A DNA stretch of 64,000 nucleotides, taken from positions 8,137-72,136 of the forward strand of contig DAHXLK010000017.1 of the NCBI GenBank assembly GCA_027366035.1. Reading direction: 5' to 3'. The notes beneath the pieces are model-generated. The model ran no database searches. It saw only the letters and a program-made list of their open reading frames with translations, and had not been told where the DNA came from. The position numbers were made by a program, and so were the translations under genes. Positions 8,159-47,002 of the stretch are shown here, in pieces (positions within the stretch are counted from its first letter, which is position 1; each line of letters starts with the position of its first letter). This stretch comes from Chlamydiota bacterium (GTDB lineage: Bacteria > Chlamydiota > Chlamydiia > Chlamydiales > SM23-39).

Positions 8159-8272
8159 ACCAACTACAGCCTATCGAAAGTGGGGTAAAAAGCAAATCGA
8201 TTTTGCTCGTAATGTTTTCCTTGTACGCAAATTTTCTTTTTGAGATAGTCACCTCTTTTTTCGAAAAAAAGT

Positions 8273-8971
8273 ATGCAAGAAGTATATGATGTCCCGTATA
8301 AGCCTTATGATTTGGTGCAGTCGGGCTATCTTCATGGGATTTCCAAACATCCGGACCTTCCACTTGTCGATCTCTTTCATCTGATGCATGCTATCTATAA
8401 AAAAGAAGTGGGGGCATACATAAGAAAAAAACTTCCCAACTATAAACTTCTAGCTATAGATAGACCTAAGCCTCGTGGAATTAAGGGGTGTATCGAAGGA
8501 GGCTGGAAGATGATTTTAGTTAGAAATAACATAACTAGCGAGTGTATTGCCGTCTGGTCCGGTGTGGATAATTGGGAGACCGATATTATAAAAACAATCG
8601 TGTATTCATTTGCTGCCCCCGAGGCGTTAATTCAAGAGATGGGGAAATGTTTAGAGCATTGGCAAGAGAAGTTTGGATATATTGGAGTGTTTTTAGGGCA
8701 TTCATTTGGAGGATATTTTGTCTCAAGGGTAAAGCCGGAGAGTGAGTGGCCCGGAAGGTGGAGGATTACTGTCAACGCCCAAGAGCCTTTGTACGAGGGA
8801 AAAAGTCTCCACTTCCGATGTCAAGGAGACCTCCTTTCCTGGGTACTTAACAGTAGAAAAAAATATTGGACCCTGGAAGATGGTTCAAAAGGCCACAGTA
8901 TCAAAGATCTATACCATGTGATCCGAGATGAGGGGATTACTTGGGAGACTATTATACTTCGCCACTCTTAA
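8273..8971 (+). CDS. Hypothetical protein with class-3-lipase-like alpha/beta-hydrolase motifs
   Basis: 232-aa ORF. Nucleophile elbow GHSFGG. Upstream IAVWSGVDNWETD resembles the lipase_3 'AFRGT..W..D' block. Later QGDLL and GHS..DLYH are possible Asp/His. Confidence 0.5.
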   Translation: MQEVYDVPYKPYDLVQSGYLHGISKHPDLPLVDLFHLMHAIYKKEVGAYIRKKLPNYKLLAIDRPKPRGIKGCIEGGWKMILVRNNITSECIAVWSGVDNWETDIIKTIVYSFAAPEALIQEMGKCLEHWQEKFGYIGVFLGHSFGGYFVSRVKPESEWPGRWRITVNAQEPLYEGKSLHFRCQGDLLSWVLNSRKKYWTLEDGSKGHSIKDLYHVIRDEGITWETIILRHS

Positions 8972-36936: not shown

Positions 36937-37009
36937 GCTGGTGTAGCTCAATTGGTAGAGCACCTGACTTGTAATCAGGCGGTTGAGGGTTCAATTCCTT
37001 TCGCCAGCA
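36937..37009 (+). tRNA. tRNA-Thr (anticodon TGT)
   Basis: Acceptor gctggtg/cgccagc. D-arm agctcaattggtagagc. Anticodon stem cctga/tcagg with loop ctTGTaa. T-loop ttcaatt. Confidence 0.9.
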
Positions 37010-37024
37010 ATCTGTTATCATAAT

Positions 37025-37106
37025 GGGGGTGTCGCATAGTGGCAATTGCAAGAGACTGTAAATCTCTCGCCTTCGGGCTTCGTCAGTTCGAGTCTGACCG
37101 CCCCCA
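37025..37106 (+). tRNA. tRNA-Tyr (anticodon GTA), class II with long variable arm
   Basis: Acceptor gggggtg/cgccccc. Anticodon stem agaga/tctct with loop ctGTAaa. Variable arm cgccttcgggcttcg. T-arm gtcag-ttcgagt-ctgac. The 3' 24 nt overlap the recombinase ORF. Confidence 0.9.
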
Positions 37107-38570
37107 TTCTTCCGGACGATTCTTAAAGTCCAGCATCGTTAAGAACGGCTCTCTCACTGAAACTGAGAGACTTCCGTCCTTCAGTTGCAAGTTCTGAAAT
37201 ACTAAATCTAAAAGTTGACGTTTTTCATCCACTTCAGAACTCTCGAAGATCTTGCGAGCACGGGTTGCCAGGTTCATCACCAGGTTCGCCGTGATATAAA
37301 AGTTTAGATCGGCCTTTTCATGTCGCTTCATCTGATCCATGATCTCAGTTTGGCGACCTTTGTATGTCGTCACCCTTTCAAGGTACATCCGTTCGTCGAT
37401 GAGGCCGTCCAACTTGTCGTCATAGATTTGGTTGAGGCGTTTTTGAATGCGGTCTTGCTCTTTTCGTAGCGCTTGGAGGCTTTCCGAATGGAACAGAGCT
37501 TCTGATTCATGGATGCCCTTGAGATAACGCGTCACATCGGCGATCTGTTGTTCGGACAGAGAGATCCTATCAAAATAGGTTGATAAAGAAGCGATCAACG
37601 GCTCCTCGCGGACGTAGACCCTCTTGCAGTTACCCTTGGCATTCGTGCAGCTGTAGTAGATATAGCGTTCTTTTTTAATCTCTGGGGTTACGATACAGCC
37701 GCAATCGGAGCAGGTAATCAGACCGCGCAATACAAAAGGTTCGCTCACCGATTTGTGTGGTTTCTTATGATATCCATTGGCTACATCTTGCGCTCGTTGG
37801 TAGAGGTCTCGGGAAATGAGTGGTTGGTAGTGATGCTCGACGAGACCATATTTGGTTTGCATCATCCCCGAATAAAACGGTTTTTTGAGGATTTCATCAA
37901 TCACCGATTTAGCGATTTTATGCCCTTTTTTACTTCTGAACCCCATCCGCTCAGCCTCTTCTTGGAGTTTTAGCAGAGAGTAGTTGCCTGTTGCGTATAG
38001 CTCGAACAGTTTCGTGATGAATGGCGCGCGCTCGGGATCTGGAACGATTGTTTTGTCGCCATTTTCCTGCGCCACGTGCATGTAACCAAGAGGGGCTAGC
38101 CCAATCCAAATTCCATTTTTTGCTGCCTGCTCCTTGCTCCGTTTCACGTTATCGCTCAATTGGAGAACGTAACTTCTTGCGAACATTACTCCCATATCCC
38201 ATCTCAGGATGTCGGCGCTATTCGATTTGAGGTTCAAAACTAGTCCTTCGCGCATGAAATGGATTTCGACTTTGCCTTCTTTCCGGAGGTCCTCTAAGAC
38301 GACAGACTCTTTGAAGCTCCTCTGGACGCGATCAATCGTATCTGCGACAAGCGCGACAATTTCCTTGGATTTGTGAATCCGCTCGATGATCTTTTCGAAT
38401 TCCTTCCGTGTTTCCTTAGTCGAAGATTCGGTGATTTTAAAGACTTCCTCTATCTCCAACCCCCTGCGGGAGGCATACTCTCGCAAACGCCGTTCCTGGG
38501 CTGGAATAGACTGTCCTTCTTCTTGCTCTTTACTCGACACTCTGGCAAGCAGTATTGCTTTCATGGCCAA
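37083..38570 (-). CDS. Large serine recombinase (resolvase/invertase N-domain + recombinase domain + zinc ribbon + coiled coil)
   Basis: 495-aa ORF. N-terminal AILLARVSSKEQEEGQSIPAQ with the catalytic Ser. Zinc ribbon CSDCGCIVTPE...YYSCTNAKGNC. The last 8 codons (EEWGRSDSN) lie inside tRNA-Tyr. Confidence 0.9.
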   Translation of the reverse strand: MAMKAILLARVSSKEQEEGQSIPAQERRLREYASRRGLEIEEVFKITESSTKETRKEFEKIIERIHKSKEIVALVADTIDRVQRSFKESVVLEDLRKEGKVEIHFMREGLVLNLKSNSADILRWDMGVMFARSYVLQLSDNVKRSKEQAAKNGIWIGLAPLGYMHVAQENGDKTIVPDPERAPFITKLFELYATGNYSLLKLQEEAERMGFRSKKGHKIAKSVIDEILKKPFYSGMMQTKYGLVEHHYQPLISRDLYQRAQDVANGYHKKPHKSVSEPFVLRGLITCSDCGCIVTPEIKKERYIYYSCTNAKGNCKRVYVREEPLIASLSTYFDRISLSEQQIADVTRYLKGIHESEALFHSESLQALRKEQDRIQKRLNQIYDDKLDGLIDERMYLERVTTYKGRQTEIMDQMKRHEKADLNFYITANLVMNLATRARKIFESSEVDEKRQLLDLVFQNLQLKDGSLSVSVREPFLTMLDFKNRPEEWGRSDSN

Positions 38571-38603
38571 ACCTTTATTACTTCTTTTCGGGTCGCTATT
38601 ATA

Positions 38604-39194
38604 TCACTTTTCCTCTGACAAGTCCTCGACTAAATTTTGCGGAACAAAGCCAATTTGTGGTTCTTGGCTCTTTCTTTCAGACTGTAGTACCCTAAGCTCA
38701 GCAAGGGATCTGAAAAGGATTTTTTCCAAAGAAATTTCATACCTTGAGAGTAACGCCAATTCGTCTCCCTGGTATCCCCCAAGGACTTCGATAATCCCGC
38801 TACTATCGAATCTGCGTGAGGCATGGTTGATCAACATCGATTCCATCTGCGTGACCCTTGATAGTCGCCAAGCGGCGGCTAAAGCCCTTTCACAGAATAA
38901 CTGCTCAAGGAGTCCTTCAGGGATGAATTGTTCGTAAAATTCCGTCTTCAAAGCTTCAAATTCTTTTTTAGATTCTCCCTCCAACACTACTTGTCTGCTG
39001 AATACCCCATGTTTTAGAGGGTTCTTGGCAAGGGCTGACTTGCCTTCGATAGATTTTGGACCAGTTGATCGTTGGGCGTTCAGGCGGTTTGAATCTAACT
39101 GTTTTTGTGATGCCATATTTTGCTCCTGTTTCTCATTTCCGATTTCTGGATTTTCTATAGGAATCGGAAAATCGGAAAGGTGTGGATTGTTCAT
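38604..39194 (-). CDS. Hypothetical protein (196 aa) of the island
   Basis: ORF with a 4-nt overlap to the primase gene. The motif NRLNAQRSTGPKSIEGKSALAKNPLKHGVFS recurs, to my recollection, in uncharacterised integrase-linked proteins. No function can be assigned. Confidence 0.55.
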   Translation of the reverse strand: MNNPHLSDFPIPIENPEIGNEKQEQNMASQKQLDSNRLNAQRSTGPKSIEGKSALAKNPLKHGVFSRQVVLEGESKKEFEALKTEFYEQFIPEGLLEQLFCERALAAAWRLSRVTQMESMLINHASRRFDSSGIIEVLGGYQGDELALLSRYEISLEKILFRSLAELRVLQSERKSQEPQIGFVPQNLVEDLSEEK

Positions 39195-40909
39195 ATAAGT
39201 CCTTGTTCTTTAGCCTTTTTCTTTCTTGTTTCAACTTGAGATTTGCTCAACCCTGTGCGGCTAGCCGTCTGTTCGATCGTTAACCCCTCTTTAAGGGCCT
39301 GAGCTACCTTTTCGACTTCAGAATCAGTCTTTGGCTCAGCGATCTCCCAAAGCCAAAGCCCGTCGTCCTCTTCTGTTAGGCGGACTTGGAAAGGCGCAGC
39401 ATCGTCACCAGCAAAATGTCGTGTTTTTTCGAAGACGACCTCAAACGCAGCTCCTTGATCAGCGCAATGTCCAGGAGGCTGTTTTAAAGTAATGACGCAA
39501 TCGAGGATATCTTCCCTTTTGCTGGTGCCGCGTTGTTGACCCGTTTTTGCCGCATGGTGGATGAAGAGTACGGATTTCCCTTTTTTCCGAAGTTCTAGCG
39601 CCCAATCTTGCACGGGTTGCCAACTTTCAGCTTCATTTTCGATCCCACTGCGAAACAGGGTAGACACGTTGTCGATGATAATGAGATCGCTGTCAGCAAT
39701 CAAATCCTCCAAGATATCCCGCTCTTCTTTGATCGAAAGGTCTGGCATTGCGCCTTCTTGCAAATCGGGCGTGATCAGCCTGAGATAAGATGGATCTGGA
39801 AGTTTTAGGTCTTCTGAGAGAGAAATCCGTTGCAAGCGCTCCTGCATGGCCCCAGCGGGCATTTCCCCGTCAATGTATAAGACCTTTCTTGGCCTTGGCG
39901 CATTCCACTTTAGGAAAGACCCGCCAGTGGCAACAGCATAGGCAATCCCTAGAGCTACGTGAGTTTTTCCCACACCCCGTTTTGCGTACAAAAGGCATAA
40001 CCCTTGCGATGGAAGAAAGGGGGCAAGGATCATTTCCCTTTTCGGCAATTTCATTTGTAAAAACTCTTCTAGCGTGACTGCCCTGATTTTCGCTTTTGGG
40101 GTAGATGGGGAATAATCTGTCGTGGCAGCTAAAAGTTTAAGGAGAGAGTCTGTAGTGTTGCCTTCCGCAAGCCAATCGCTAACGTCCTTGCCGTGCGATT
40201 CTTGATATTCGATCCCAGGGAGATCTATTACGCGGAGGCGTTTGACTTTGCCGTAGAGAGTTTTACATAACAAATTTTTCCGTTCGATCCCAGTTTTGTC
40301 CATATCATAAAGAACGGCGACATCACAATTTCGTAGAACGGCAGTGAAATCGTCGGGCCACTTGAGTGATTCAGGAGTAGTGGTCGCCACAAGGCCGTAT
40401 TGGGCCAATTTGTCAGCATCCTTTTCTCCTTCGACCAGAAATACTGTGTTGCCCTCATGGGTCGCTTGTAAAACCTCCGGAAGTCGATAGAGGATTTTCC
40501 GGCACCCCTCAAGATTCCTCACGATTTCCCCTTTTTCGTTGAATCTTTCCCAGTAAAAGCTTTTTAGTTTTCCATTAAACCCAGGCTCGATTCGGATTTT
40601 TGAAAAGAGCGCTTTGCCTTGCTCGTCGCGATAGGGATATTCTATTCGCCTTTTGGCTGTTTCAGCCTCTTTACCGAGTTTCACGGGGAACAAGTCAGTG
40701 ATTGCAATACCTAGGGAAGCGCAAATGTTTTCAGGAACGCATCCAGCAAAACACTTAACGAGGATTTTTCCGTCATCGCCCTCGTTAATGGAAAGACTCG
40801 GATTAGAGTCGTCGTGGGAAGGGCATCGCAAGCTGTATCCATGTCCCGATTTCCGTGCTTCAAATCCTGTTTTTCTTTCGACTAGGCGAATAAATTCTTC
40901 GATCATCAT
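39191..40909 (-). CDS. Primase (CHC2 zinc finger + TOPRIM) fused to RecA-like AAA ATPase (RepA/AAA_25-type) with C-terminal HTH
   Basis: 572-aa ORF. Zinc finger CPSHDDSNPSLS...KCFAGC. TOPRIM VFLVEGEKDADKL and VLYDMDKTG. Walker A AKRGVGKTH. Walker B LIIIDNV. C-terminal LTIEQTASRTGLSKSQV. Confidence 0.85.
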   Translation of the reverse strand: MMIEEFIRLVERKTGFEARKSGHGYSLRCPSHDDSNPSLSINEGDDGKILVKCFAGCVPENICASLGIAITDLFPVKLGKEAETAKRRIEYPYRDEQGKALFSKIRIEPGFNGKLKSFYWERFNEKGEIVRNLEGCRKILYRLPEVLQATHEGNTVFLVEGEKDADKLAQYGLVATTTPESLKWPDDFTAVLRNCDVAVLYDMDKTGIERKNLLCKTLYGKVKRLRVIDLPGIEYQESHGKDVSDWLAEGNTTDSLLKLLAATTDYSPSTPKAKIRAVTLEEFLQMKLPKREMILAPFLPSQGLCLLYAKRGVGKTHVALGIAYAVATGGSFLKWNAPRPRKVLYIDGEMPAGAMQERLQRISLSEDLKLPDPSYLRLITPDLQEGAMPDLSIKEERDILEDLIADSDLIIIDNVSTLFRSGIENEAESWQPVQDWALELRKKGKSVLFIHHAAKTGQQRGTSKREDILDCVITLKQPPGHCADQGAAFEVVFEKTRHFAGDDAAPFQVRLTEEDDGLWLWEIAEPKTDSEVEKVAQALKEGLTIEQTASRTGLSKSQVETRKKKAKEQGLI

Positions 40910-40930
40910 TATTACCTCTTTATTAATTTG

Positions 40931-41200
40931 TTACGTCACATTCCCGAGTACTTTTTCTGCTTTTTCGCACACGACTTTTTCAATTTCTCTGCTCAACTCT
41001 TGGGTGGTGGGATGGCAAATTGTTTGACTTCCTTCCCCGATCCTCTTTGTGGGGTAAGTGATTCTGTAGCCAGAGCCGTCCCTTTTGCGATGGACTCCAA
41101 TTGAACTGACATAAAAACGTCCATCTAGCTCAACGCATGCGAACGCCATCAGCCCGTCTTGCGGGTGGATGGGAAGGATTTCCACTTTTGTGACTGCCAT
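40931..41200 (-). CDS. SpoVG-like small DNA/RNA-binding protein
   Basis: 89-aa ORF. The pattern V.KVEILPIHPQDGLMAFACVELDGRFYVSSIGVHRKRDGSGYRITYPTKR......ICHP parallels the SpoVG fold signature (V.V....G.lkAfasv.ld..f.v..i.v.....g.fv.mPs.r........HP). Confidence 0.45.
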   Translation of the reverse strand: MAVTKVEILPIHPQDGLMAFACVELDGRFYVSSIGVHRKRDGSGYRITYPTKRIGEGSQTICHPTTQELSREIEKVVCEKAEKVLGNVT

Positions 41201-41362
41201 AAAGCTCCGGATTGTTACGTCTGTCTATTCGAAGCAGCAGGTCAAAAAACTGTCCTAATCGATCTTCCGTAGAAGCCACGATAGGGGAAAGGGCAGACCT
41301 GTGCTTTTTCATACCCCCAAAATAATGGATCTGTTGCTCATGTGAGCGCATTTGCACGCAAG

Positions 41363-41402
41363 TGCGACTGGATCAGAATTTTTTGAGATAAAATGCGACT
41401 GG
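41363..41402. promoter_or_regulatory. Pair of 9-bp direct repeats TGCGACTGG spaced 31 bp apart in the divergent intergenic region of the island
   Basis: tgcgactgg at 41363-41371 and 41394-41402, about 80-115 bp upstream of the 475-aa gene start. Possible operator or iteron. Confidence 0.3.
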
Positions 41403-41479
41403 TGTATGCTAGAGTTAGACAGCAACCGATACTTTTTAGCCTGAGGCGCGATCTAAAAATGTAATAAGGAAGTGAAAAA

Positions 41480-42907
41480 ATGAGTCTCGCAGTCAGTCAA
41501 TCTTTGCTTTTGCTGAATTGTCTAGAACGATTCGAAAAGCAGTCTAAAGAAATCCAACATAGGAATGAGCTTGTCGAGTTATTTTGCACTCAGGTCATTC
41601 CTTTCCTCACCGAGAACGGACTCCTTGATGCTCTACGTAAGAATTGGGCGCGTCAACGGGATCAGATGAATTTAAGGGTGAGGGAAACTGAAGCCAAAGC
41701 CCTAGAAGAAATACAAGCAACGGCTGATGAAATACGATTAGCCGTCGGCGTTTGCTCAGATGAAGTTATTAAGGCAAAGCAAGAGTTGATCCAACGCCTT
41801 ATATCAGGTGAAGAGAAATGGTATGGCACGCCGCTTTATCGAATCCTCTTTGGTGAACTGAAGCAGCTTCTTCAATGTTTATTAGAAGCTGGGCATGAGC
41901 ACATTTGCGTCAAATATGCGAAATTAGGAGTTCGTAGGATCTATGTTCAGCGAGAGAATCCAATCAAACGATGGATGATTATTCGCAATGGAGGACAGAA
42001 CGGAATTCCTCTCACTGCAAAAGAAGCTGCAAATGCCAAGAAAAAGGGCGAGAAGGGTCTTGTTTCCTTTTACTCCGATCTCGAGTTGGTTGAAGAAACT
42101 TTCATCGAGGAATTCTCATTCGCGCCAAGCGTTCTGGACGCGTATGAGGCAATGGATTCCGTACATTGGGATCGTTTTCAAGATCCAGCCGTCGTCTGGT
42201 GGTATTTTGAAACGGCCTTTTGGTATTGGAAGACAACGGAGTTTTATTTCAACGAGATCCTGCGTCCGAAAAATGGCAATGATCTTGGAAAGCACTTTCA
42301 GACAACTTGTGAACAAGCGACATGGCGTGAAATCGCTGATGCAAGGGATAGAGTTAACGACGCAAGCAGGATTCCTGTGATTTTTACAACAGGGTTTTTT
42401 AGAACAGGGCTTCGTACGTTGGCTAACGCTATTGCTGTTTATCTTTCTCAAGATCCGACAACTTTGGAAGCCTCGCCTCACAAAATAAATGATTCCCTAA
42501 CGCATTTTGAGCTTGTTCTCGATGGCAATGAATTATGGGTACATGTCTCTTTTGAGAATCAAGCAATCGAAAAATTCTTTGTCCAAAAATTCAACGAAGG
42601 GCCAGATCTTACTGGATCCCGACTTCACCAATTTGCAAAAGGACTTGTAGAAGATCCCGTTGAAGGAACTAAGAAAGCAAAATTAGTTCGAAAATGGGAA
42701 TCTGCGTCAAAGCATATTAATCGTTTGAAATTACCGATGCTTCTAAAGCAAAAGTTTTTTGCTAAATCGTATAGTTCTCATTTCGATTTTAAGGGGGCAA
42801 GAATATCGCTAGGGAGCGATCTGAATGAAGTTAGGCTGATCCTAAAAGATTTGAGGCAGAATCATTTAAAATCTAAGGAACGGGTTGAAAATGGGAAAGA
42901 TGGATGA
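41480..42907 (+). CDS. Hypothetical protein (475 aa), first gene of the R-M-containing cassette
   Basis: Long ORF with an AAGGAAG SD-like sequence upstream. Its 3' end overlaps the methyltransferase ORF by 23 nt. I recognise no domain. Confidence 0.6.
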   Translation: MSLAVSQSLLLLNCLERFEKQSKEIQHRNELVELFCTQVIPFLTENGLLDALRKNWARQRDQMNLRVRETEAKALEEIQATADEIRLAVGVCSDEVIKAKQELIQRLISGEEKWYGTPLYRILFGELKQLLQCLLEAGHEHICVKYAKLGVRRIYVQRENPIKRWMIIRNGGQNGIPLTAKEAANAKKKGEKGLVSFYSDLELVEETFIEEFSFAPSVLDAYEAMDSVHWDRFQDPAVVWWYFETAFWYWKTTEFYFNEILRPKNGNDLGKHFQTTCEQATWREIADARDRVNDASRIPVIFTTGFFRTGLRTLANAIAVYLSQDPTTLEASPHKINDSLTHFELVLDGNELWVHVSFENQAIEKFFVQKFNEGPDLTGSRLHQFAKGLVEDPVEGTKKAKLVRKWESASKHINRLKLPMLLKQKFFAKSYSSHFDFKGARISLGSDLNEVRLILKDLRQNHLKSKERVENGKDG

Positions 42908-43922
42908 GAAGAGAAACACGCCGGACAAGAGAATGAAGGTCGTCGATCTTTTTTGCGGATGTGGAGGATTGTCTTTAGGATTTCAAAACGCTGGCTTTGA
43001 AATATTAGCGGCCTATGATGCATGGGATACTGCTATAGAATGCTATAAAGAGAATTTTCATCATCCTGCTTCTTGTTTAGATCTTTCAGCAGTGGATCAT
43101 GCGATCGCCGAGATCAGACAGTGGAATTGTGATATTATCATAGGAGGCCCGCCATGTCAGGATTTTTCTCATGCTGGGAAACGGCAAGAAGGCGCTCGGG
43201 CTAATCTTACTACATGCTTTGCCAAGATTGTGTCTGCGATAAAGCCCGCATGGTTTGTAATGGAAAACGTTGATAGGGCGATTACAAGCGCTTCTTATGC
43301 ACAAGCAAGGAATATTTTTCTGAACGCTGGATATGGGATTTCAGAATTAGTCCTTGATGCTAGCTTTTGTGGCGCTCCCCAGAAGAGGAAACGGTTATTT
43401 TGCATAGGAAGATTAGGAGAAGAAAACGAATTTATAGTAGAACGCATTCAAAAAAGAATGAGCAAGAAACCGATGACAGTTCGTGAACATTTAGGGAGTG
43501 AGCTTGGAATAGAGCATTACTATAGGCACCCGAGAAACTACAATCGGAGAGCAGTATTCTCAATTGATGAACCTTCTCCAACTATTAGAGGCGTAAATCG
43601 GCCCATACCTATGGGGTATCCAGGACATGCGCAAGATTCTGCTCCTATTGATTCTTTGATTCGTCCTTTGACTTCTCTGGAAAGGGCTAGAATTCAAACA
43701 TTTCCAGTCGATTATAAATGGGTAGGATCAAAAACTGAACAGGAAACCATGATAGGCAATGCGGTTCCAGTAAAGTTGGCTGAGTTCGTTGGGCGATCCA
43801 TATTAGACGAGAATTGCAATCAAGGGAACGCGAGAAGATTATCTTTTAGCTCATCTCCTGAAAACCATATCGTAACTTTTGCTAAATCAGCACGGTGCGA
43901 ACAGCTATCCTTCAGGCTTTAG
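42885..43922 (+). CDS. DNA (cytosine-5)-methyltransferase
   Basis: Motif I DLFCGCGG, IV GGPPCQDFS, VI ENV, VIII QKRKRLF, X GNAVP. The true start may be the Met at 42900 or 42933 (MKVVDLFCGCGG). Confidence 0.93.
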   Translation: MKMGKMDEKRNTPDKRMKVVDLFCGCGGLSLGFQNAGFEILAAYDAWDTAIECYKENFHHPASCLDLSAVDHAIAEIRQWNCDIIIGGPPCQDFSHAGKRQEGARANLTTCFAKIVSAIKPAWFVMENVDRAITSASYAQARNIFLNAGYGISELVLDASFCGAPQKRKRLFCIGRLGEENEFIVERIQKRMSKKPMTVREHLGSELGIEHYYRHPRNYNRRAVFSIDEPSPTIRGVNRPIPMGYPGHAQDSAPIDSLIRPLTSLERARIQTFPVDYKWVGSKTEQETMIGNAVPVKLAEFVGRSILDENCNQGNARRLSFSSSPENHIVTFAKSARCEQLSFRL

Positions 43923-43928
43923 AGCAAT

Positions 43929-45050
43929 ATGACAGACTTTAAAGATACAGATCCTAAATTATACGGCATTAATCATTCAAATCGTGATGGAGATGATCTG
44001 TGGGGGAAAAACCAATTTAATAGCACGTTTCCTGTTGCTCTTATGTGTTTTATGCGGGATCAACAGGTTCCTGCTGCATATTTGTCTATCACAAAGAAAC
44101 TGAACGTATCTGTTTCTGAAATATCATTCGACCAAGTTTTAGATACAAATATTCCGAACAAGGATCTTTATTTTCTTTTTGAGGGGAAATTTGATCCTTA
44201 TCAAGATTTTGCGTACGATGACATAGGATCAATTGATCTTGTTGTAACTGAGAGCGTTCGTGATTCAGCAGCTCGATCGTACGGATCAATGCCTGGTCGT
44301 TTTTTAAGACCGCTGGAGATAAAACTCACGGTCGTACCCGATCATACTACGCATAAAGAGCTAGAGCGACTTTGGGGACCCGAACTTGTTATCCGACCTG
44401 CTACCACAATCTACTGCGCACTAGGAATCGCCCACTCTTGCAAGACAGCAAAAGTCCTAGGAAAGGTCAGAGCCATTTTTGAGCCTCTTTGCCATTCTAT
44501 AAAGGATTGGGATAACGAACATGAAATTAATGCAAGGGTTGACGACATTTTAGAGTCCTTGGATCGGTTTCAATCTGAAATGTGGCAACTGCAAAAACCT
44601 ATGTTGATGCAGCCTATCTGGAAAACGGAAGGGAAAAGTCCTATTTTGATGAAGAATGCGTTTGATATTTTTATCTGGAGCGATTTTGCTTTATGCCGAT
44701 TATTTCTCGATTTGTCGAGAGGAGGAGCCGAACGGAAAGAGGTCAACCGATTTGTAAGAAGCGCTGCACGTCTTGCAAGATTTTTATATGAAGTTTCTAC
44801 TAGGGGCAAAGTGAACGTGAAGAACATTTATACTGAAATGGCGCACAATAGGCAGACGGATAAGGAATTCGCAGTCAGCGGGAAAAAAACGCATTCTTAT
44901 ATGAGCTCAAAATATTTGTCGAACCCAAGAATCCAGAGAGATGCATTACGTCACATTATCCTCAATGGAGGGGAGCAAAAATTAAATCCCGAAAGGCGCT
45001 TTGACCAGACAGTCTATTTTACGACCAAACACATTTTTGAAAGCTCGTAA
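43929..45050 (+). CDS. Putative type II restriction endonuclease (PD-ExK type), cognate to the adjacent methyltransferase
   Basis: 373-aa ORF starting 6 nt after the MTase and abutting vsr. Candidate catalytic motif SIDLVV...PLEIKLT (D...ExK). Specificity is not determinable. Confidence 0.6.
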   Translation: MTDFKDTDPKLYGINHSNRDGDDLWGKNQFNSTFPVALMCFMRDQQVPAAYLSITKKLNVSVSEISFDQVLDTNIPNKDLYFLFEGKFDPYQDFAYDDIGSIDLVVTESVRDSAARSYGSMPGRFLRPLEIKLTVVPDHTTHKELERLWGPELVIRPATTIYCALGIAHSCKTAKVLGKVRAIFEPLCHSIKDWDNEHEINARVDDILESLDRFQSEMWQLQKPMLMQPIWKTEGKSPILMKNAFDIFIWSDFALCRLFLDLSRGGAERKEVNRFVRSAARLARFLYEVSTRGKVNVKNIYTEMAHNRQTDKEFAVSGKKTHSYMSSKYLSNPRIQRDALRHIILNGGEQKLNPERRFDQTVYFTTKHIFESS

Positions 45051-45506
45051 ATGGATGTCTTTTCCAAGAAGAAAAGAAGCGAAATCATGTCAAAAGTCAG
45101 GGGGAAGGACACCGCCCCTGAGATCAAAGTACGGAAATCTCTTTTCGCCCTGGGTTTTAGATACAGGCTAAATGTTCGAAAGATCCCTGGGAAGCCGGAT
45201 ATCGTGCTGCGTAAATACGAAGCGTTGATATTCGTCCATGGTTGTTTCTGGCACGGCCATCATTGTCGGATTGGTAATTTACCGGTAAGTAATAGCGCCT
45301 ACTGGCAACGCAAAATGGAAAGGAACAGAGCCAGAGACAAGATGAACCTTAAGCGTTTAAGGATGATGGGTTGGAGGGTCTTAACGGTTTGGGAATGCGC
45401 CTTAGCCGGTAAGGGGAGATTGCCGTCGGATCTCCTATCTAGGAAGCTGAATACATGGATCGTGGGAAGCAGACAGGTCGGTAATATTCAAGGGTTAAAG
45501 AATTGA
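45051..45506 (+). CDS. vsr: Very-short-patch repair endonuclease Vsr
   Basis: 151-aa ORF. DTAPEIKVRKSLFALGFRYRLNVRKIPGKPDIVLRKYEALIFVHGCFWHGHHC is the Vsr signature. Confidence 0.92.
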   Translation: MDVFSKKKRSEIMSKVRGKDTAPEIKVRKSLFALGFRYRLNVRKIPGKPDIVLRKYEALIFVHGCFWHGHHCRIGNLPVSNSAYWQRKMERNRARDKMNLKRLRMMGWRVLTVWECALAGKGRLPSDLLSRKLNTWIVGSRQVGNIQGLKN

Positions 45507-45553
45507 TTGGTTTGTTTGCGAGTCTGAAATATTAATTCATCTTCTTTTTAATT

Positions 45554-46303
45554 ATGCGCGCGTTTTATTCTTTTAGCATGAAAAAAATTAGTCGTTCAAA
45601 AATTGATTTGTTTTTGTCTTGCCCTTGTTGTTTTTATTTGGATCAGCTTTGTAAGGTCTCTCGTCCTTCCATACCAAAGTTTACGATCAACGATGCTGTT
45701 GATGGGTTGCTCAAGAAAGAATTTGATGTTTATCGTAATGCAGGCAAGCCTCATCCGTTGATGAGCCAATTCGCAATCGATGCGGTTCCCTTTCAACACC
45801 CAGATATTGAAAAATGGCGTAAAAATAAAATTGGCATCCAAGTTTCACATGAAGCGACCTCGTTCTTGGTTTACGGGGCTATTGACGATGTCTGGGTTGA
45901 TAAAACTGGGACGCTCTACATTGTGGATTACAAGGCCACCAGCATTAAGGATATTCCGACTCTGGATGGGCGAGATGCCTATAAAAGGCAAATAGAAGTT
46001 TACCAGTGGCTTTTTCGTCAAAATGGCTTCAAAGTGTCCAACACAGGGTATTTCGTCTACTGCAATGGGAAAAAAAATGCAGAATCCTTCAACGGACGGA
46101 TTGATTTTGATATGCAGATTTTGTCTTATGAGGGCGATGTTTCGTGGGTAGAGCCGACGCTGTTTAAGATCCGTTCGGCCATGGATGCACAGGAAATACC
46201 TGTTTCTTCAGAGCATTGCGAATATTGCGCTTTCCGCGAAGAAGGTGTAGCTGTACTACGCGAGAGAACTCAATCCGTTTTTCCCGTAAGTTTGACAACC
46301 TAA
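45554..46303 (+). CDS. PD-(D/E)XK nuclease, Cas4/RecB-like with Cys cluster
   Basis: 249-aa ORF. GAIDDVWVDKTGTLYIVDYKAT (D...DYK). N-terminal SCPCCFY and C-terminal EHCEYCAF cysteines resemble a Cas4-type Fe-S cluster. Confidence 0.7.
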   Translation: MRAFYSFSMKKISRSKIDLFLSCPCCFYLDQLCKVSRPSIPKFTINDAVDGLLKKEFDVYRNAGKPHPLMSQFAIDAVPFQHPDIEKWRKNKIGIQVSHEATSFLVYGAIDDVWVDKTGTLYIVDYKATSIKDIPTLDGRDAYKRQIEVYQWLFRQNGFKVSNTGYFVYCNGKKNAESFNGRIDFDMQILSYEGDVSWVEPTLFKIRSAMDAQEIPVSSEHCEYCAFREEGVAVLRERTQSVFPVSLTT

Positions 46304-46387
46304 TATTTTAACATTTAATAATTTAGACTGTAATGCATCAAATCCTTTTGAGAAACGTTCCCAATCAAAAGTTCTGAATTCGTCCAG

Positions 46388-46545
46388 TCGCCCCCATTTC
46401 TGGCTTTGGGGAGAATTTCCCGTTTTTTTTCAGGTTCTTTTGAAAAACTCTCCTCGGCAAGCTTATCAAAGCTTGCCCACGTCGTAGTTTTTCAAAATTA
46501 CCTGAAAAAATTCCGAGAACTTCCCCCCAAATCCCTCATGGGGGC
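46388..46545. repeat. About 158-bp imperfect palindrome whose two tips copy the tRNA-Tyr 3' end (cgcccccat / atgggggcg)
   Basis: Centre ggcaagctt-atca-aagcttgcc (46455-46476). The arms align as inverted repeats (tttttcaaaa, cctgaaaaaa and ccccaaa blocks) out to 46388 and 46545. Confidence 0.75.
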
Positions 46546-46582
46546 GGTCTCGCCTCCATTTTCTAACTAGCGAAGGCAAGTT

Positions 46583-46774
46583 CTATAAAATATGGATCAC
46601 ACTTGTGACAACTCCAAGAATATGAAAATTCATCTGGCTTGAAATATCGAGTGGAGAAAAAGCATCATTTTCTGCAAGAAGTCGGATTTTATTTTTCTCG
46701 ATATGCAAACGTTTTACAGTAAACTCACCATTCACTGTGGCAATGACAACTTTTCCGTGTTGAGGTTCTACTAC
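46583..46774 (-). pseudogene. umuD: UmuD/LexA-type S24 peptidase, C-terminal fragment only
   Basis: HGKVVIATVNGEFTVKRLHIEKNKIRLLAENDAFSPLDISSQMNFHILGVVTSVIH parallels E. coli UmuD [20 protein letters not shown]...[25 protein letters not shown]. The Ser-containing N-terminal half is missing. Confidence 0.7.
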
Positions 46775-47002
46775 AATTTTCCATGAACTGCAATAATAAA
46801 CATTTAAAAATCCGAAGAAGACCGTGTCCTTAATATAAGGATTATCATTTTCCAATTTCTTGAGTTTTTTCTCGACTGATTTGAACGATCAAATCTTAGC
46901 AAATTTACGATAGTTGTGGTTTTCGGGTACTAAATCTTCTAACCAAATAATTTCAGCTTGTTGAATGGAACCCTTCTTAAAAAACAGAAAATTGTAAAAC
47001 AT
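46775..47002 (-). pseudogene. Remnant of an IS5/IS1182-type transposase N-terminus (InsH_N-like), with an in-frame stop, fused to the umuD fragment
   Basis: The minus-strand translation reads MFYNFLFFKKGSIQQAEIIWLEDLVPENHNYRKFAKI*SFKSVEKKLKKLENDNPYIKDTVFFGFLNVYY. The L.DLVPE.H.YRK block is typical of this transposase N-domain. Confidence 0.35.

Follow-up and report, generated by a model that had tools for sequence, protein, structure and literature searches.

Genes and composition of the tRNA-Tyr locus

The DNA analysed here is a single stretch of 64,000 nucleotides from a Chlamydiota bacterium, called the window below, and the following genes were found between positions 37025 and 46303.

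37025-37106, plus strand: tRNA-Tyr(gta), the target gene, intact (Rfam tRNA, 54 bits)
37083-38564, minus strand: large serine recombinase (LSR) gene, stop codon at 37083-37085, 493 aa from the ATG at 38564
38604-39194, minus strand: 196-aa backbone protein without family match, always immediately upstream of the LSR gene, kept in 14 related loci
39191-40909, minus strand: replication protein of primase-helicase type (Pfam AAA_25, 1.6e-28; phrog_239 DNA primase/helicase), kept in 30 loci
40931-41200, minus strand: SpoVG-like backbone protein (Pfam SpoVG, 8.6e-10), also found in relatives such as the Legionella and Auribacterota elements
41480-42907, plus strand: 475-aa backbone protein without family match, homologues at the equivalent position in 7 loci
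42885-43922, plus strand: cargo, type II C5-cytosine DNA methyltransferase (Pfam DNA_methylase, 1.6e-66; PADLOC MTase_II, 1.7e-135)
43929-45050, plus strand: cargo, HindVP-family type II restriction endonuclease (Pfam RE_HindVP, 4.4e-100; PADLOC REase_II)
45051-45506, plus strand: cargo, Vsr very-short-patch repair endonuclease (Pfam Vsr, 7.9e-34; PADLOC Vsr)
45554-46303, plus strand: cargo, PD-(D/E)XK / Cas4-like nuclease (Pfam PDDEXK_1; PADLOC and NCBIfam Cas4 below cut-off)

ARAGORN placed the bounds of the tRNA-Tyr gene at 37024-37107. The LSR gene converges antisense on it with an overlap of 24 nt, and therefore the seven final sense codons of the LSR (W G R S D S N) and its stop codon are tRNA sequence, read as the reverse complement of 37083-37106. 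The original prediction had counted eight codons in the same region, and it had described a 495-aa recombinase abutting the tRNA. The open reading frame and the antisense overlap were both found as described, and the frame in full (37083-38570, minus strand) does give 495 aa from a TTG start, but the true start is probably the ATG at 38564, because the identical 493-aa product is recorded in another assembly (Logan SRR33270664). The protein has the Resolvase, Recombinase and Zn_ribbon_recom domains (Pfam), matched the phrog_95 integrase family (PHROG), and carries at its N-terminus an ARVSS motif with Ser10, the presumed nucleophile. Its direct sequence matches to the TP901-1 and A118 integrase structures were weak, the mycobacterial phage serine integrases were only about 24% identical to it, and the nearest curated LSR family was CcrB with 78 bits, far below the cut-off of 900. 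Pfam found no tyrosine recombinase within the island, and the LSR is the sole recombinase there.

The backbone consists of the LSR, the 196-aa protein, the primase-helicase, the SpoVG-like protein and the 475-aa protein, and all five genes are intact. The primase-helicase is laid out as a CHC2 zinc finger, a primase region, an AAA_25 ATPase and a C-terminal HTH, and the 475-aa protein gene is divergent from this replication module. Neither the 196-aa nor the 475-aa protein had any match in Pfam, PHROG, NCBIfam or PADLOC. The cargo of 3.5 kb comprises a type II restriction-modification system, Vsr, which commonly accompanies an m5C methylase, and the Cas4-like nuclease. While the backbone is common to related elements, the restriction-modification cargo occurred only in this copy among the related loci compared, and the C5-methyltransferase was absent from every one of them. 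Pfam and PHROG found no capsid, terminase or packaging genes in this copy, and no recombination directionality factor (RDF) was recognisable. This gene content, with primase/AAA_25, SpoVG, two proteins without family, the C5-methyltransferase, the HindVP-type enzyme, Vsr and the PD-(D/E)XK/Cas4-like nuclease, agreed with what had been predicted.

The segment had also been judged by eye to be richer in G+C than its flanks, which held weakly: its GC was 0.442 against 0.427 +/- 0.008 in equal-sized outside windows, but the outside maximum was 0.444, and within the element the left 5.8 kb had 0.455 and the cargo half only 0.420. Tetranucleotide usage inside the element was clearly foreign, with z = 6.6-7.7 relative to the rest of the window, and this deviation faded only around 46-48 kb.

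Attachment sites and point of exchange

The ends of the segment were described by the features below, of which only the P' arm is assigned a strand.

37099-37108: attL common core CGCCCCCATT, which comprises the acceptor 3' strand, the discriminator and 2 nt beyond
37109-37135, minus strand: P' arm, inside the final LSR codons (...KNRPEEW)
46358-46388: P arm, element-borne and T-arm-like, plus-strand sequence ttcccaatcaaaagttctgaattcgtccagt
46389-46398: attR common core CGCCCCCATT, right end of the element
46399-46552: host-side B' flank, outside the element

The core is a 10-bp perfect identity that occurs in two copies only in the window, and these bracket 9,290 bp. A far copy of the tRNA end had been proposed at 46377-46397, of which the perfect 10 nt at 46389-46398 could be confirmed and the rest of the 21 nt was only loosely similar. 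The copy had been expected to exceed shuffled controls and did not: the local-alignment score of the core repeat was 20, and the best-of-shuffle scores had a mean of 22.2 and a maximum of 28 (100 shuffles), which is not above chance. The core repeat alone is not significant, so its reality rests on comparison, namely on a block of about 40 nt that is kept at homologous far ends. This block (46358-46401) was 86-92% identical to the far ends of the related elements L009, L012, L014 and L030, the P-arm motif was also found in L018, L029, L032, L033, L088-L090 and others, and a block of about 30 nt adjoined the core at constant distance in at least 15 related elements. Since the far block is kept in elements at different targets (tmRNA, tRNA-Met, Asn and Ser), it is the element's own attP half-site and not a displaced tRNA fragment. 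The idea that the far copy is a tRNA end duplicated in the manner of tyrosine integrases was not borne out: only 10 bp are common, and the rest is this conserved T-arm-like half-site. The tRNA-Tyr gene itself is nearly all host DNA (the B arm of attL).

Junctions of the form P'-core-P, in which the LSR 3' end is fused to the far-end block, were observed in relatives. They include L029, which is a tandem array at tmRNA, L088, L089 (Ca. Theseobacter, Auribacterota), whose core ATGGGGGCG is identical to that of the window, and L090, where a 30-nt terminal overlap closes a 9,125-bp circle and a 978-aa ORF spans the ends. The circular contig L090 could alternatively have arisen from identical tandem copies.

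Comparison of the junction pairs of five elements confined the exchange to T0-G4 of the LSR strand, with L030 setting it to the right of -1 and L018 and L014 to the left of +5 to +9. This places the inferred crossover within 37102-37106, the last 5 nt of the tRNA, and with an exchange there the tRNA body would remain host DNA. Dyad symmetry of the reconstructed attP sites picked the centre weakly (88 versus 83 for two other centres). Eight of nine element pairs have the GAAC motif of the P arm 5 bp more distal than that of the B arm, the register of the ninth being ambiguous, and the same offset was seen in the Legionella relative. This offset agrees with the geometry of canonical large serine integrases, in which attB carries the motif 5 bp nearer the crossover than attP does (Rutherford et al. 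2013, PMC3783163). GTCC in the P' arm mirrors GGAC in the P arm; in our own reading, the P' arm of the tRNA-Asn subgroup does not mirror its P arm with the spacing expected, and the host-side B' arm contained no convincing half-site.

Target use by relatives and proposed mechanism

We collected 80 metagenomic loci with LSR homologues, 74 of which were informative. In 65 of these 74 the LSR reading frame extended into the 3' end of a t(m)RNA gene or into a fragment of one, and 8 showed an attP-like junction, among them the circle-closing contig L090. Homologues in the same configuration were 43-92% identical to the LSR, with more distant ones at 32-36%. Thirteen targets were seen, which were tmRNA and the tRNAs for Tyr, Met, Leu(caa/cag), Asn, Gln(ctg/ttg), Arg(acg/tcg), His, Ser and Glu, and the LSR-t(m)RNA overlap was kept over all 13 and over several phyla. 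In other genomes the same five-gene backbone adjoins further targets, among them tmRNA and tRNA-Met. The same arrangement was also found in Legionella adelaidensis at tRNA-Asn, in Auribacterota, in two human-gut contigs and, at this very locus (TtcA-SEC-C-tRNA-Thr-tRNA-Tyr), in Neochlamydia sp. S13. The LSR clade is widespread and barely described, and it inserts almost always at tRNA/tmRNA 3' ends. Distant relatives (Chlamydiales 38-26 and others) had no such block at tRNA-Thr/tRNA-Tyr.

The evidence thus supports an integrated element whose limits are the tRNA-Tyr 3' end and the far repeat. Our main reading, to which we give a probability of about 0.85, is that a small integrative element, probably able to replicate itself, occupies 37099-46388 (9,290 bp), where the LSR inserted it at the tRNA-Tyr 3' end. 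The central claim of the original prediction, an integrated element at tRNA-Tyr driven by the LSR, was accordingly upheld by its anatomy, the family-wide target use, the conserved att arms and the attP junctions.

We propose that integration proceeds by LSR-mediated conservative site-specific recombination between attP and attB. The attP site would straddle the 3' end of the recombinase's own reading frame, with the P' arm in the final codons, a short core and the conserved P arm, and attB would be centred on the final few nucleotides of the tRNA-Tyr gene. Upon insertion, approximately the terminal tRNA nucleotide and the 3' trailer alone would be replaced, and the recombinase frame would then terminate within antisense tRNA sequence. 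The P arm is a T-arm look-alike: its GAAC is set 5 bp farther from the crossover than that of the T-loop (G53-T54-T55-C56, antisense) in the tRNA arm, which is the spacing by which LSR zinc-ribbon domains distinguish attP from attB. The clade appears to recognise the T-loop, which is nearly universal, together with a few acceptor bases; if so, that would account for the use of many different tRNAs and tmRNA. The assignment of motifs to protein domains, like activity of this copy at the present day, is our deduction from sequence.

Alternative explanations and known systems

That an element of this family landed long ago and is now an immobile remnant, with the LSR a relic or repurposed, is a minority possibility to be taken seriously. 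An empty tRNA-Tyr site in close relatives and an excision junction had both been anticipated, and for this copy we found no empty site, excision product, circle or population heterogeneity: the best flank identity among available relatives was 64%, none of them being a close relative with an empty site, and the only other assembly with these exact proteins comes from the same sample and has the site occupied. Decay at this target is also documented, since the LSR of Neochlamydia sp. S13 is a pseudogene with an in-frame stop, without backbone genes or P arm within 10 kb, and L003 has only a remnant of about 190 bp adjoining tRNA-Tyr; the GC of the element is moreover near that of the backbone. 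However, the LSR frame is unbroken and retains every domain as well as the ARVSS motif, both att arms closely fit the family consensus, the other backbone genes are intact as well, and tetranucleotide usage is still strongly foreign. Somewhat less probable is a phage satellite or degraded prophage that needs a helper phage for transfer, as opposed to an integrative replicative element that acts autonomously. In L088 there is a helicase as well as a gene resembling small terminases (GP3_package), the primase-helicase has matches among phage families, the size (6-12 kb) and architecture are satellite-like, and P-arm-like sequence is present in IMG/VR viral contigs, but this copy has no capsid, terminase or packaging genes, its cargo consists of defence genes, and the LSR scan of viral contigs gave a sole relative at 32% identity. 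This explanation concerns transfer and not integration, and it is compatible with an LSR-inserted element.

Two further explanations are very improbable. If the 10-bp repeat were a chance match, as its shuffle score would allow, the true right boundary would lie elsewhere, for example past the 169-nt imperfect palindrome at 46384-46552, which takes in the host-side B' flank and includes a terminator-like hairpin with T8 at 46407-46430. An inverted 12-nt second copy of the tRNA end is present at 46538-46549, it is followed near 46.9 kb by a truncated, also foreign-looking S24 peptidase gene (repressor/UmuD-like), and the slow fading of the tetranucleotide deviation would suit such a boundary. 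But the sequence past 46398 matched no related element compared, while the core directly adjoins the conserved far block at constant distance and attP junctions fuse that block to the LSR 3' end. Slightly less credible still is a classical tyrosine-integrase island in which the far copy is a decayed tRNA 3' fragment, the integrase was lost, and the LSR is cargo or a resolvase. Other elements do use tRNA-Tyr (a degraded tyrosine-integrase-like remnant follows it in L002), many loci have tRNA fragments cut at the anticodon loop, and the Legionella relative has a tyrosine recombinase beside the LSR. Against this, the island here is without a tyrosine recombinase, the far block is kept whatever the target and so is not a fragment of this host's tRNA, the LSR-t(m)RNA overlap is equally general, and attP junctions join the LSR end to the far block.

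A serine recombinase at a tRNA target is unusual, as had been remarked, yet precedents exist: the DsiB islands at ssrA in Dehalococcoides (McMurdie et al. 2011, PMC3146451), AICEs of Mycobacterium, which carry serine recombinases and occupy tRNA-Leu, and the phage phiRSM at tRNA-Ser (Ghinet et al. 2011, PMC3218068), and 14 of 297 S-Int islands (PMC7192596). Several traits of the Dehalococcoides islands recur here. Their LSR measures about 500-540 aa, and the 3' end of its gene invariably overlaps an attL located where the target RNA gene ends; the far boundary has that gene's 3' end again as a short direct repeat; tandem arrays form; and the islands are small and mobilizable, with variable cargo. 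CcrB, far below cut-off, is likewise the nearest curated family for the LSR here, and by our own comparison, their motif TTCAGRSMGMRKCCA beside the repeat fits 12 of 15 positions of TTCTGAAnnCGTCCA seen here. They differ in that the target here is tRNA-Tyr (with 12 further tRNA/tmRNA targets in relatives), the repeat measures 10 bp against 20 bp in theirs, and the backbone consists of primase-helicase, SpoVG and two unknown proteins, without DsiA (a second, small serine recombinase), ParB, RecF or the Mom module. AICEs are conjugative elements of actinobacteria and carry FtsK-like transfer genes, and the phiRSM enzyme is small and resolvase-like, without Recombinase and zinc-ribbon domains. 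To our knowledge, no att architecture comparable to that of the present element has been described for either.

Canonical phage LSRs (A118/LI, Bxb1, phiC31, TP901-1) share the three domains and short att sites, but their targets are protein-coding or intergenic and the integrase frame stays clear of attP, whereas here attP straddles the 3' end of the frame, attB is a t(m)RNA 3' end and no RDF is recognisable. SCCmec resembles the element in that its CcrB is the curated family nearest to the LSR, though far below cut-off, in that it inserts at the very 3' terminus of a gene that is essential and conserved, and in being a small cargo-carrying island, but SCC targets rlmH (orfX), requires a CcrA/CcrB pair or CcrC, and has no comparable replication module. 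Ccr-type LSRs integrate and excise without a classical RDF. Tyrosine-integrase tRNA islands likewise have an integrase gene adjoining an intact t(m)RNA, a 3'-end repeat at the far boundary, tandem arrays, and tRNA-Tyr and tmRNA as hot spots; their enzyme family and chemistry are unrelated, and here no tRNA fragment has been displaced by a crossover in the anticodon loop or T-loop, the shared stretch is only 6-16 bp, and the look-alike flank is element DNA. Prochlorococcus tycheposons are also small and tRNA-associated and combine a site-specific integrase, a replication module of primase/helicase type and adaptive cargo, but they are overwhelmingly based on tyrosine recombinases and belong to a different host phylum; an LSR was present in 27 of 937 tycheposons and cryptic elements (Hackl et al., bioRxiv 10.1101/2020.12.28.424599).

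The LSR gene also contains a conserved inverted repeat at 37190-37241 with 9-nt arms (agttctgaa / ttcagaact) and a 34-nt spacer. Across 21 diverse homologues 96% of cells were paired, with 7 compensatory cells, a level reached by 0 of 500 shuffles.

The tRNA-Tyr locus and its element

Window positions 37099-46388 (9,290 bp) are read here as an integrative element, with a probability of about 0.85, and the mechanistic details are held with lower confidence. On family comparison, attachment arms and attP junctions, the original prediction of an element driven by a large serine recombinase (LSR) at tRNA-Tyr was essentially right.

Features at the tRNA-Tyr locus (window coordinates)
36937-37009, plus strand, tRNA-Thr(tgt), found by ARAGORN and Rfam
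37025-37106, plus strand, tRNA-Tyr(gta), found by ARAGORN and Rfam
Start 38570 (TTG) or 38564 (ATG), stop 37083-37085, minus strand, LSR reading frame
37099-37108 and 46389-46398, shared core
37109-37135, P' arm, predicted attP half in the last LSR codons
46358-46388, P arm, predicted attP half at the far end

The serine recombinase does adjoin and overlap tRNA-Tyr as predicted, but its ATG-start product has 493 aa instead of 495, and this product was matched residue for residue, in the same gene context, in an independent assembly of SRR33270664. Pfam gave an N-terminal catalytic Resolvase domain at residues 5-154 (6.9e-15), a Recombinase domain (1.2e-11) and Zn_ribbon_recom (1.6e-08), and the gene matched the phrog_95 integrase at 2.4e-70. 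The motif MKAILLARVSSKEQ probably carries R8 and S10 as resolvases do, and residues of about 330-430, which may form the coiled-coil insertion of the zinc-ribbon domain that governs directionality in LSRs, are enriched in E/K/L/Q in a heptad-like manner. The nearest curated LSR families were Ccr and XisF, both far under their cut-offs, and the PDB sequence search returned marginal LSR matches only. The codons for the C-terminal W-G-R-S-D-S-N and the stop codon lie antisense to the T-arm and the acceptor 3' strand of tRNA-Tyr, which gives an overlap of 24 nt and places the LSR 3' end on attL; the eight codons attributed to the tRNA are seven sense codons plus the stop.

Domain searches confirmed the gene content claimed between tRNA-Tyr and the far repeat, namely a primase/AAA_25 protein, a SpoVG-like protein, a C5-methyltransferase, a HindVP-type restriction enzyme, Vsr and a PD-(D/E)XK/Cas4-like nuclease, while no family match was found for the 196-aa and 475-aa proteins. 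In tblastn against all loci, the backbone order was the 475-aa protein (opposite strand), SpoVG, primase-helicase, the 196-aa protein and the LSR, and a 4.8-kb stretch of locus L033 was collinear with the window element (74% identity at the DNA level). None of the related loci had a tblastn counterpart of the methylase, the restriction enzyme, Vsr or the Cas4-like nuclease. The type II restriction-modification (R-M) genes are contiguous and co-oriented (DNA_methylase 1.6e-66, RE_HindVP 4.4e-100, Vsr 7.9e-34), PADLOC called MTase_II, REase_II and Vsr, and horizontal acquisition as cargo accounts for the R-M/Vsr/nuclease block. The cargo of relatives is type I R-M in L089, Abi and Eco57I-type genes in the Legionella element and a small-terminase-like gene in L088, so the shared backbone and varying cargo describe a family of small carriers with their own replication module and often with defence genes. 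No recombination directionality factor was recognisable in the window element; the related contig L090 has an HTH_17, Xis-like gene ahead of its LSR.

The element was also said to be more G+C-rich than its flanks, which holds only slightly: its G+C is 0.442 vs 0.427 ± 0.008 in equal-sized windows elsewhere, within their maximum of 0.444, and the left 5.8 kb (0.455) is the sole part just above the outside range. Tetranucleotide usage in 4-kb windows within 37-46 kb lies 6.6-7.7 sd from the rest of the window.

The perfect repeat of the two ends is the 10-mer CGCCCCCATT (37099-37108 and 46389-46398), which has two copies in the whole window, spaced by 9,290 bp. The original prediction had listed a match no better than shuffled controls among the points against it, and on this point the far copy fell short: local alignment of the tRNA 3' end with the window scored 20 at 46389-46398, and composition-preserving shuffles (n = 100) gave best scores of 22.2 on average and 28 at maximum. 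The 10-bp repeat alone is not significant, so the weight was placed on comparative evidence. By BLAST, window 46358-46401 is 86-92% identical to the LSR-distal block in loci L014 (tRNA-Met), L030 (tmRNA), L009 and L012, and a degenerate search of the loci gave about 20 occurrences. On the LSR strand, the block opens with 6-16 nt equal to the acceptor 3' strand of the target of its own element and continues with the conserved TTGGACGnnTTCAGAACTTTTGAyTGG. Because the block is kept in elements at other targets, it is element DNA and not a displaced piece of host tRNA. The far copy of the tRNA end is thus present as an exact 10-mer, but the block next to it belongs to the element.

Islander-type islands, in which a tyrosine integrase uses a tRNA gene, carry a Phage_integrase gene and a displaced tRNA fragment, and the window island has neither: no tyrosine recombinase (Phage_integrase) was present in the ORFs of 37-47 kb, and a host-tRNA fragment from the crossover to the 3' end was absent at the far boundary, where 10 nt only are identical. 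Rfam found no RNA in the island besides the tRNA. The far block could also be a swapped C-terminal LSR tail (W-G-R-L-D-x-F-R-T-F-D-W), but this was dropped as the main constraint, since third codon positions are invariant in LSRs only about 50% identical and there is no protein conservation downstream. Such a DNA-level constraint points to a candidate recombinase-binding arm. For the integrative element itself, attL and attR flank it and share the 10-bp core with the target, and the P' arm at attL and the P arm at attR fit the family consensus.

Directly outside attR lies a 169-nt imperfect palindrome (46384-46552; RNA fold -79 kcal/mol, z = -10.2), whose outer ends are the attachment core inverted: on the minus strand, 46538-46549 reads exactly GACCGCCCCCAT. 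A terminator-like hairpin with T8 (46407-46430) sits inside it. Between the palindrome and sufE there is a truncated 90-aa S24 peptidase ORF (46583-46855, minus strand; C-terminal domain of LexA/UmuD/CI-repressors), which an older mobile element probably left behind at this same tRNA-Tyr hot spot. In Chlamydiales bacterium 38-26 (L002, 8300-8970), a frame-disrupted N-terminal remnant like a tyrosine integrase lies past the tRNA-Tyr 3' end, so in this order tRNA-Tyr is a hot spot shared by unrelated integrases.

Targets of related recombinases and precedents

The window LSR has more than 1,800 database relatives, and a metagenome scan with it returned 80 loci with relatives 43-91% identical. 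ARAGORN and Rfam showed that in the metagenomic loci the LSR is convergent with a t(m)RNA 3' end, mostly with an overlap of about 20 nt, and the targets were tmRNA (the overlapping arrangement in at least 11 related loci) and the tRNAs Tyr, Met, Leu(caa), Asn, Gln(ctg, ttg), Arg(acg, tcg), His and Ser. A simple classifier was run over all 80 loci, of which 74 were informative.

Classification of the 80 loci by the sequence following the LSR
T-loop-containing t(m)RNA end or fragment immediately past the LSR: 65/80
Canonical element-type junction: 2/80
Unclassed by the script: 7/80, of which 6 are variant element-type junctions by inspection
Insufficient length for a call: 6/80

With 65 of the 74 informative loci and 13 targets, t(m)RNA 3'-end targeting is the rule in the clade of the window LSR; the database search with the recombinase suggested in the original prediction thus gave relatives repeatedly at tRNA and tmRNA 3' ends. 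Many database homologues are annotated as reading through the whole antisense tRNA-Tyr, even into tRNA-Thr. Neochlamydia sp. S13 has an LSR pseudogene (70% identical) at the same TtcA-SEC-C-tRNA-Thr-tRNA-Tyr locus. In Legionella adelaidensis NCTC12735, the 33%-identical LSR WP_084758891.1 overlaps tRNA-Asn by 30 nt, and its element also has SpoVG, Abi and R-M genes. Two human-gut contigs carry LSRs (32-36% identical) at tRNA-Leu(cag) and tRNA-Glu. The hosts of the clade include Chlamydiota, Auribacterota, Legionella and gut bacteria.

In L007, L009-L013, L015 and L037, as well as L020, L021, L031 and L035, the LSR adjoins a 3' fragment of the target only, either a tRNA-Tyr or tRNA-Met truncated 2-4 nt on the 5' side of the anticodon loop or a tmRNA truncated right past the T-loop, and the sequence then continues into unrelated DNA. 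No tyrosine integrase was seen within 10 kb in the loci of this type. The fragments may be leftovers of other islands that serve as landing sites, in which case about 20 nt of the RNA gene would suffice.

The standard account is that serine integrases are not known to use tRNA genes as targets (PMC4383910). In the survey of Mageeney et al., 14 of 297 S-Int islands used a t(m)RNA gene; the authors thought this unreported and called for experimental proof (PMC7192596). Ghinet et al. noted that some AICEs of Mycobacterium lie in tRNA-Leu and have serine recombinases, and that phiRSM lies in tRNA-Ser (PMC3218068). In the Dehalococcoides ssrA islands that McMurdie et al. had described before the Mageeney survey, the 540-aa CcrB-like DsiB always lies over attL, with a 20-bp repeat and an adjoining conserved motif (PMC3146451). 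The window element likewise has the LSR 3' end over attL at an RNA gene, but it is without the DsiA, RecF-like, ParB-like and Mom-like genes of those islands, and DsiB and the window LSR are likened only by CcrB as the nearest curated family for both and by similar motifs beside the repeat (PMC3146451). LSRs also occur in a few tycheposons. The pairing of a serine recombinase with a tRNA end, called unusual in the original prediction, is rare but has precedents (PMC3146451, PMC3218068, PMC7192596), and serine-integrase t(m)RNA elements as a kind are known, rare and poorly characterised. In full-text literature searches we found no description of how broadly a single LSR clade keeps to t(m)RNA ends, of its presence in Chlamydiota, of a conserved T-arm-like P arm with a 5-bp offset, or of a co-varying inverted repeat in an LSR gene.

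Attachment sites, crossover and target choice

In several contigs the LSR reading frame enters the far-end block directly and no tRNA intervenes, which gives the order P' arm, core, P arm.

attP-type junctions in related loci
L029: tandem array at tmRNA, with an upstream second LSR copy, the junction, a complete element and tmRNA
L033: LSR remnant ahead of an attP-type junction
L081 and L045: attP-type junctions of the Asn group
L088: attP-type junction
L089: Candidatus Theseobacter exili MAG (Auribacterota), core ATGGGGGCG as in the window, type I R-M cargo
L090: attP-type junction; Logan contig, 9,155 nt

The attP predicted for the window element (37083-37135, minus strand, followed by 46398-46340, minus strand; ...CGTCCGGAAGAATGGGGGCGACTGGACGAATTCAGAAC...) has the same layout as the junction observed in L089.

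The crossover was bounded by comparing attL with attR of the same element, numbered on the LSR strand with T0 as the complement of the discriminator. The shared core of the window on this strand is AATGGGGGCG. Right past ATTGGAGGTGG, L018 has G in its host arm and A in its element arm, which places the exchange left of +9; in L014 the shared stretch is only ATGGGG, which places it left of +5; and in L030 identity begins at T0, which places it right of -1. If one position holds for the whole clade, we infer an exchange within T0-G4, which covers the discriminator together with the four terminal acceptor nucleotides (37102-37106/46392-46396). When nine attP sites, real or reconstructed, were scanned for dyad symmetry, the top centre was +1.5 (score 88; mean 54, sd 13), which corresponds to CC at tRNA positions 71-72 (37104-37105), the predicted central dinucleotide. 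The scan favours this centre only weakly, as two other centres scored 83. A crossover in the anticodon loop, prompted by the loci whose tRNA ends there, was rejected because real attP junctions break directly past the acceptor strand. With an exchange in T0-G4 the tRNA would be host DNA nearly to its last base. The element would then replace about the terminal tRNA nucleotide and the 3' trailer only, and integration would have displaced the native tRNA-Tyr trailer, with its terminator-like hairpin and T8 (46407-46430), by 9.3 kb.

In every tRNA, the GAAC of the antisense T-loop (G53-T54-T55-C56) occupies +17 to +20, counted from the discriminator, and the P arm has its GAAC, within TTCAGAAC, at +22 to +25. 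An automatic register search gave a shift of exactly +5 between P arm and B arm, the host tRNA side of attL, in 8 of 9 element pairs (Tyr, Met, tmRNA, Asn), and the register of the ninth pair (Ser) was ambiguous; the Legionella element also showed the +5 shift by eye. In the Listeria LSR, the motif of the zinc-ribbon domain is 5 bp nearer the centre in attB (positions 11-19) than in attP (16-24), and this offset underlies site discrimination and directionality (Rutherford et al. 2013, PMC3783163). With the centre at +1.5, the GAAC positions here fall into the Listeria attB and attP ranges. From this geometry we infer that the zinc-ribbon domain of the clade would read the near-invariant T-loop, and that the recombinase domain would read the acceptor and T-stem bases which co-vary between P arm and target. 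Such a reading would account for a clade that is confined to t(m)RNA 3' ends and yet switches easily among them. No clear half-site was seen in the host-side B' arm, and the P' arm of the Asn subgroup is without a mirror of the P arm at the expected spacing.

Inside the LSR gene there is an inverted repeat with 9-nt arms (37190-37198/37233-37241) and a constant spacer of about 34 nt, which 21 diverse homologues of the LSR keep at the corresponding position. Its arms change in compensatory pairs (TCTGA/TCAGA, TCAGA/TCTGA, TCGGA/TCCGA and TCGCA/TGCGA), and where one arm has a Ser codon changed synonymously, the other has Q/L/P/S/A replacements to match, so the constraint lies on the nucleotides. 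The right arm is the P-arm motif TTCAGAACTT; the repeat may serve as one more dyad bound by the recombinase, or it may form a hairpin in the RNA. In the 3' coding region of the LSR, between the conserved repeat and the P' arm, there is another short inverted repeat, TCTCTCA(N7)TGAGAGA (37140-37175, LSR codons ...LSVSVREP...), and L029 has one placed differently.

Taken jointly, these points lead to a tentative reading that we put well short of even odds, namely a T-loop-specialised cross-phylum clade with few inner target-setting base pairs and a regulatory inverted repeat. The zinc-ribbon domain would read G53-T54-T55-C56 at attB spacing and its look-alike at attP spacing; the choice among tRNAs would be set by just about 8-12 inner bp co-varying between element and target; and the LSR-internal repeat, as a third binding site or an RNA hairpin, would couple expression or directionality of the recombinase to the integration state, together with the swap of the C-terminal tail of the ORF. 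If so, the clade would be specialised on a sequence present many times in every bacterium, the T-loop/acceptor end of t(m)RNA.

The conserved attP architecture would explain t(m)RNA targeting by known LSR rules, and the question why tyrosine but not serine integrases use tRNA genes becomes directly testable. The family also adds a mobile element and defence-gene vector to the environmental chlamydiae, organisms that are difficult to handle genetically. LSRs require no host factors, so serine integrases with natural landing sites in essentially every genome matter for genome engineering.

Mobility, remnants and related arrays

The window copy may be active: its LSR, both att arms and all backbone genes are intact, and its composition is still foreign. 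Exact-protein look-ups with the LSR, SufE and the SEC-C protein returned the same sample only, with the site occupied, and they gave no circle, empty site or heterogeneity for this element. A GTDB scan for an empty tRNA-Tyr site with the TtcA-like flank gene found relatives 52-64% identical and no conserved downstream synteny, so the closest available genomes are too distant as empty-site controls. Other family members show attP junctions and, in one contig, closure to a circle. L090 begins and ends with the same 30 nt, the pattern expected of a cyclic path in a k = 31 graph, and closure gives a 9,125-bp circle with a 978-aa ORF continuous over the joined ends. Its LSR is 70% identical to that of the window, with the SpoVG-primase-LSR backbone in common, and at assembly level L090 appears to be either a free circle or identical tandem copies.

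Decayed copies at tRNA-Tyr (Neochlamydia and L003) show that such elements do become fixed. In L003, another Chlamydiales MAG, a miniature remnant beside tRNA-Tyr (499-690) consists of a P-arm-like motif, about 90 nt and the last 20 or so LSR codons running into the tRNA; this remnant either arose by deletion or is a miniature element in its own right.

Scans of viral contigs found no predicted attP with the Tyr-type core, and the general P-arm motif found P-arm-like sequence without an LSR. Four IMG/VR contigs (L097-L100; e.g., L098 1340-1380) have ATGGGGGCAGTTGGACGATTTCAGAACTTTTGA in common, which matches the core and P arm of L014 at 29 of 33 positions and falls within a methyltransferase-like ORF with a DPPW motif; the fetched DNA is without an LSR. 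Arrays of attP-like sites were seen in L043 (about 5340-5420 and 6945-7030) and L080 (about 5675-5760 and 8240-8330), downstream of a tRNA-Asn-type LSR. Each site has a P'-like arm, a TGGCTCCCC core and a P arm, the spacing is 1.6-2.6 kb, and no LSR gene lies between the sites, so that the arrays look like non-autonomous cassettes, which could be mobilised in trans.
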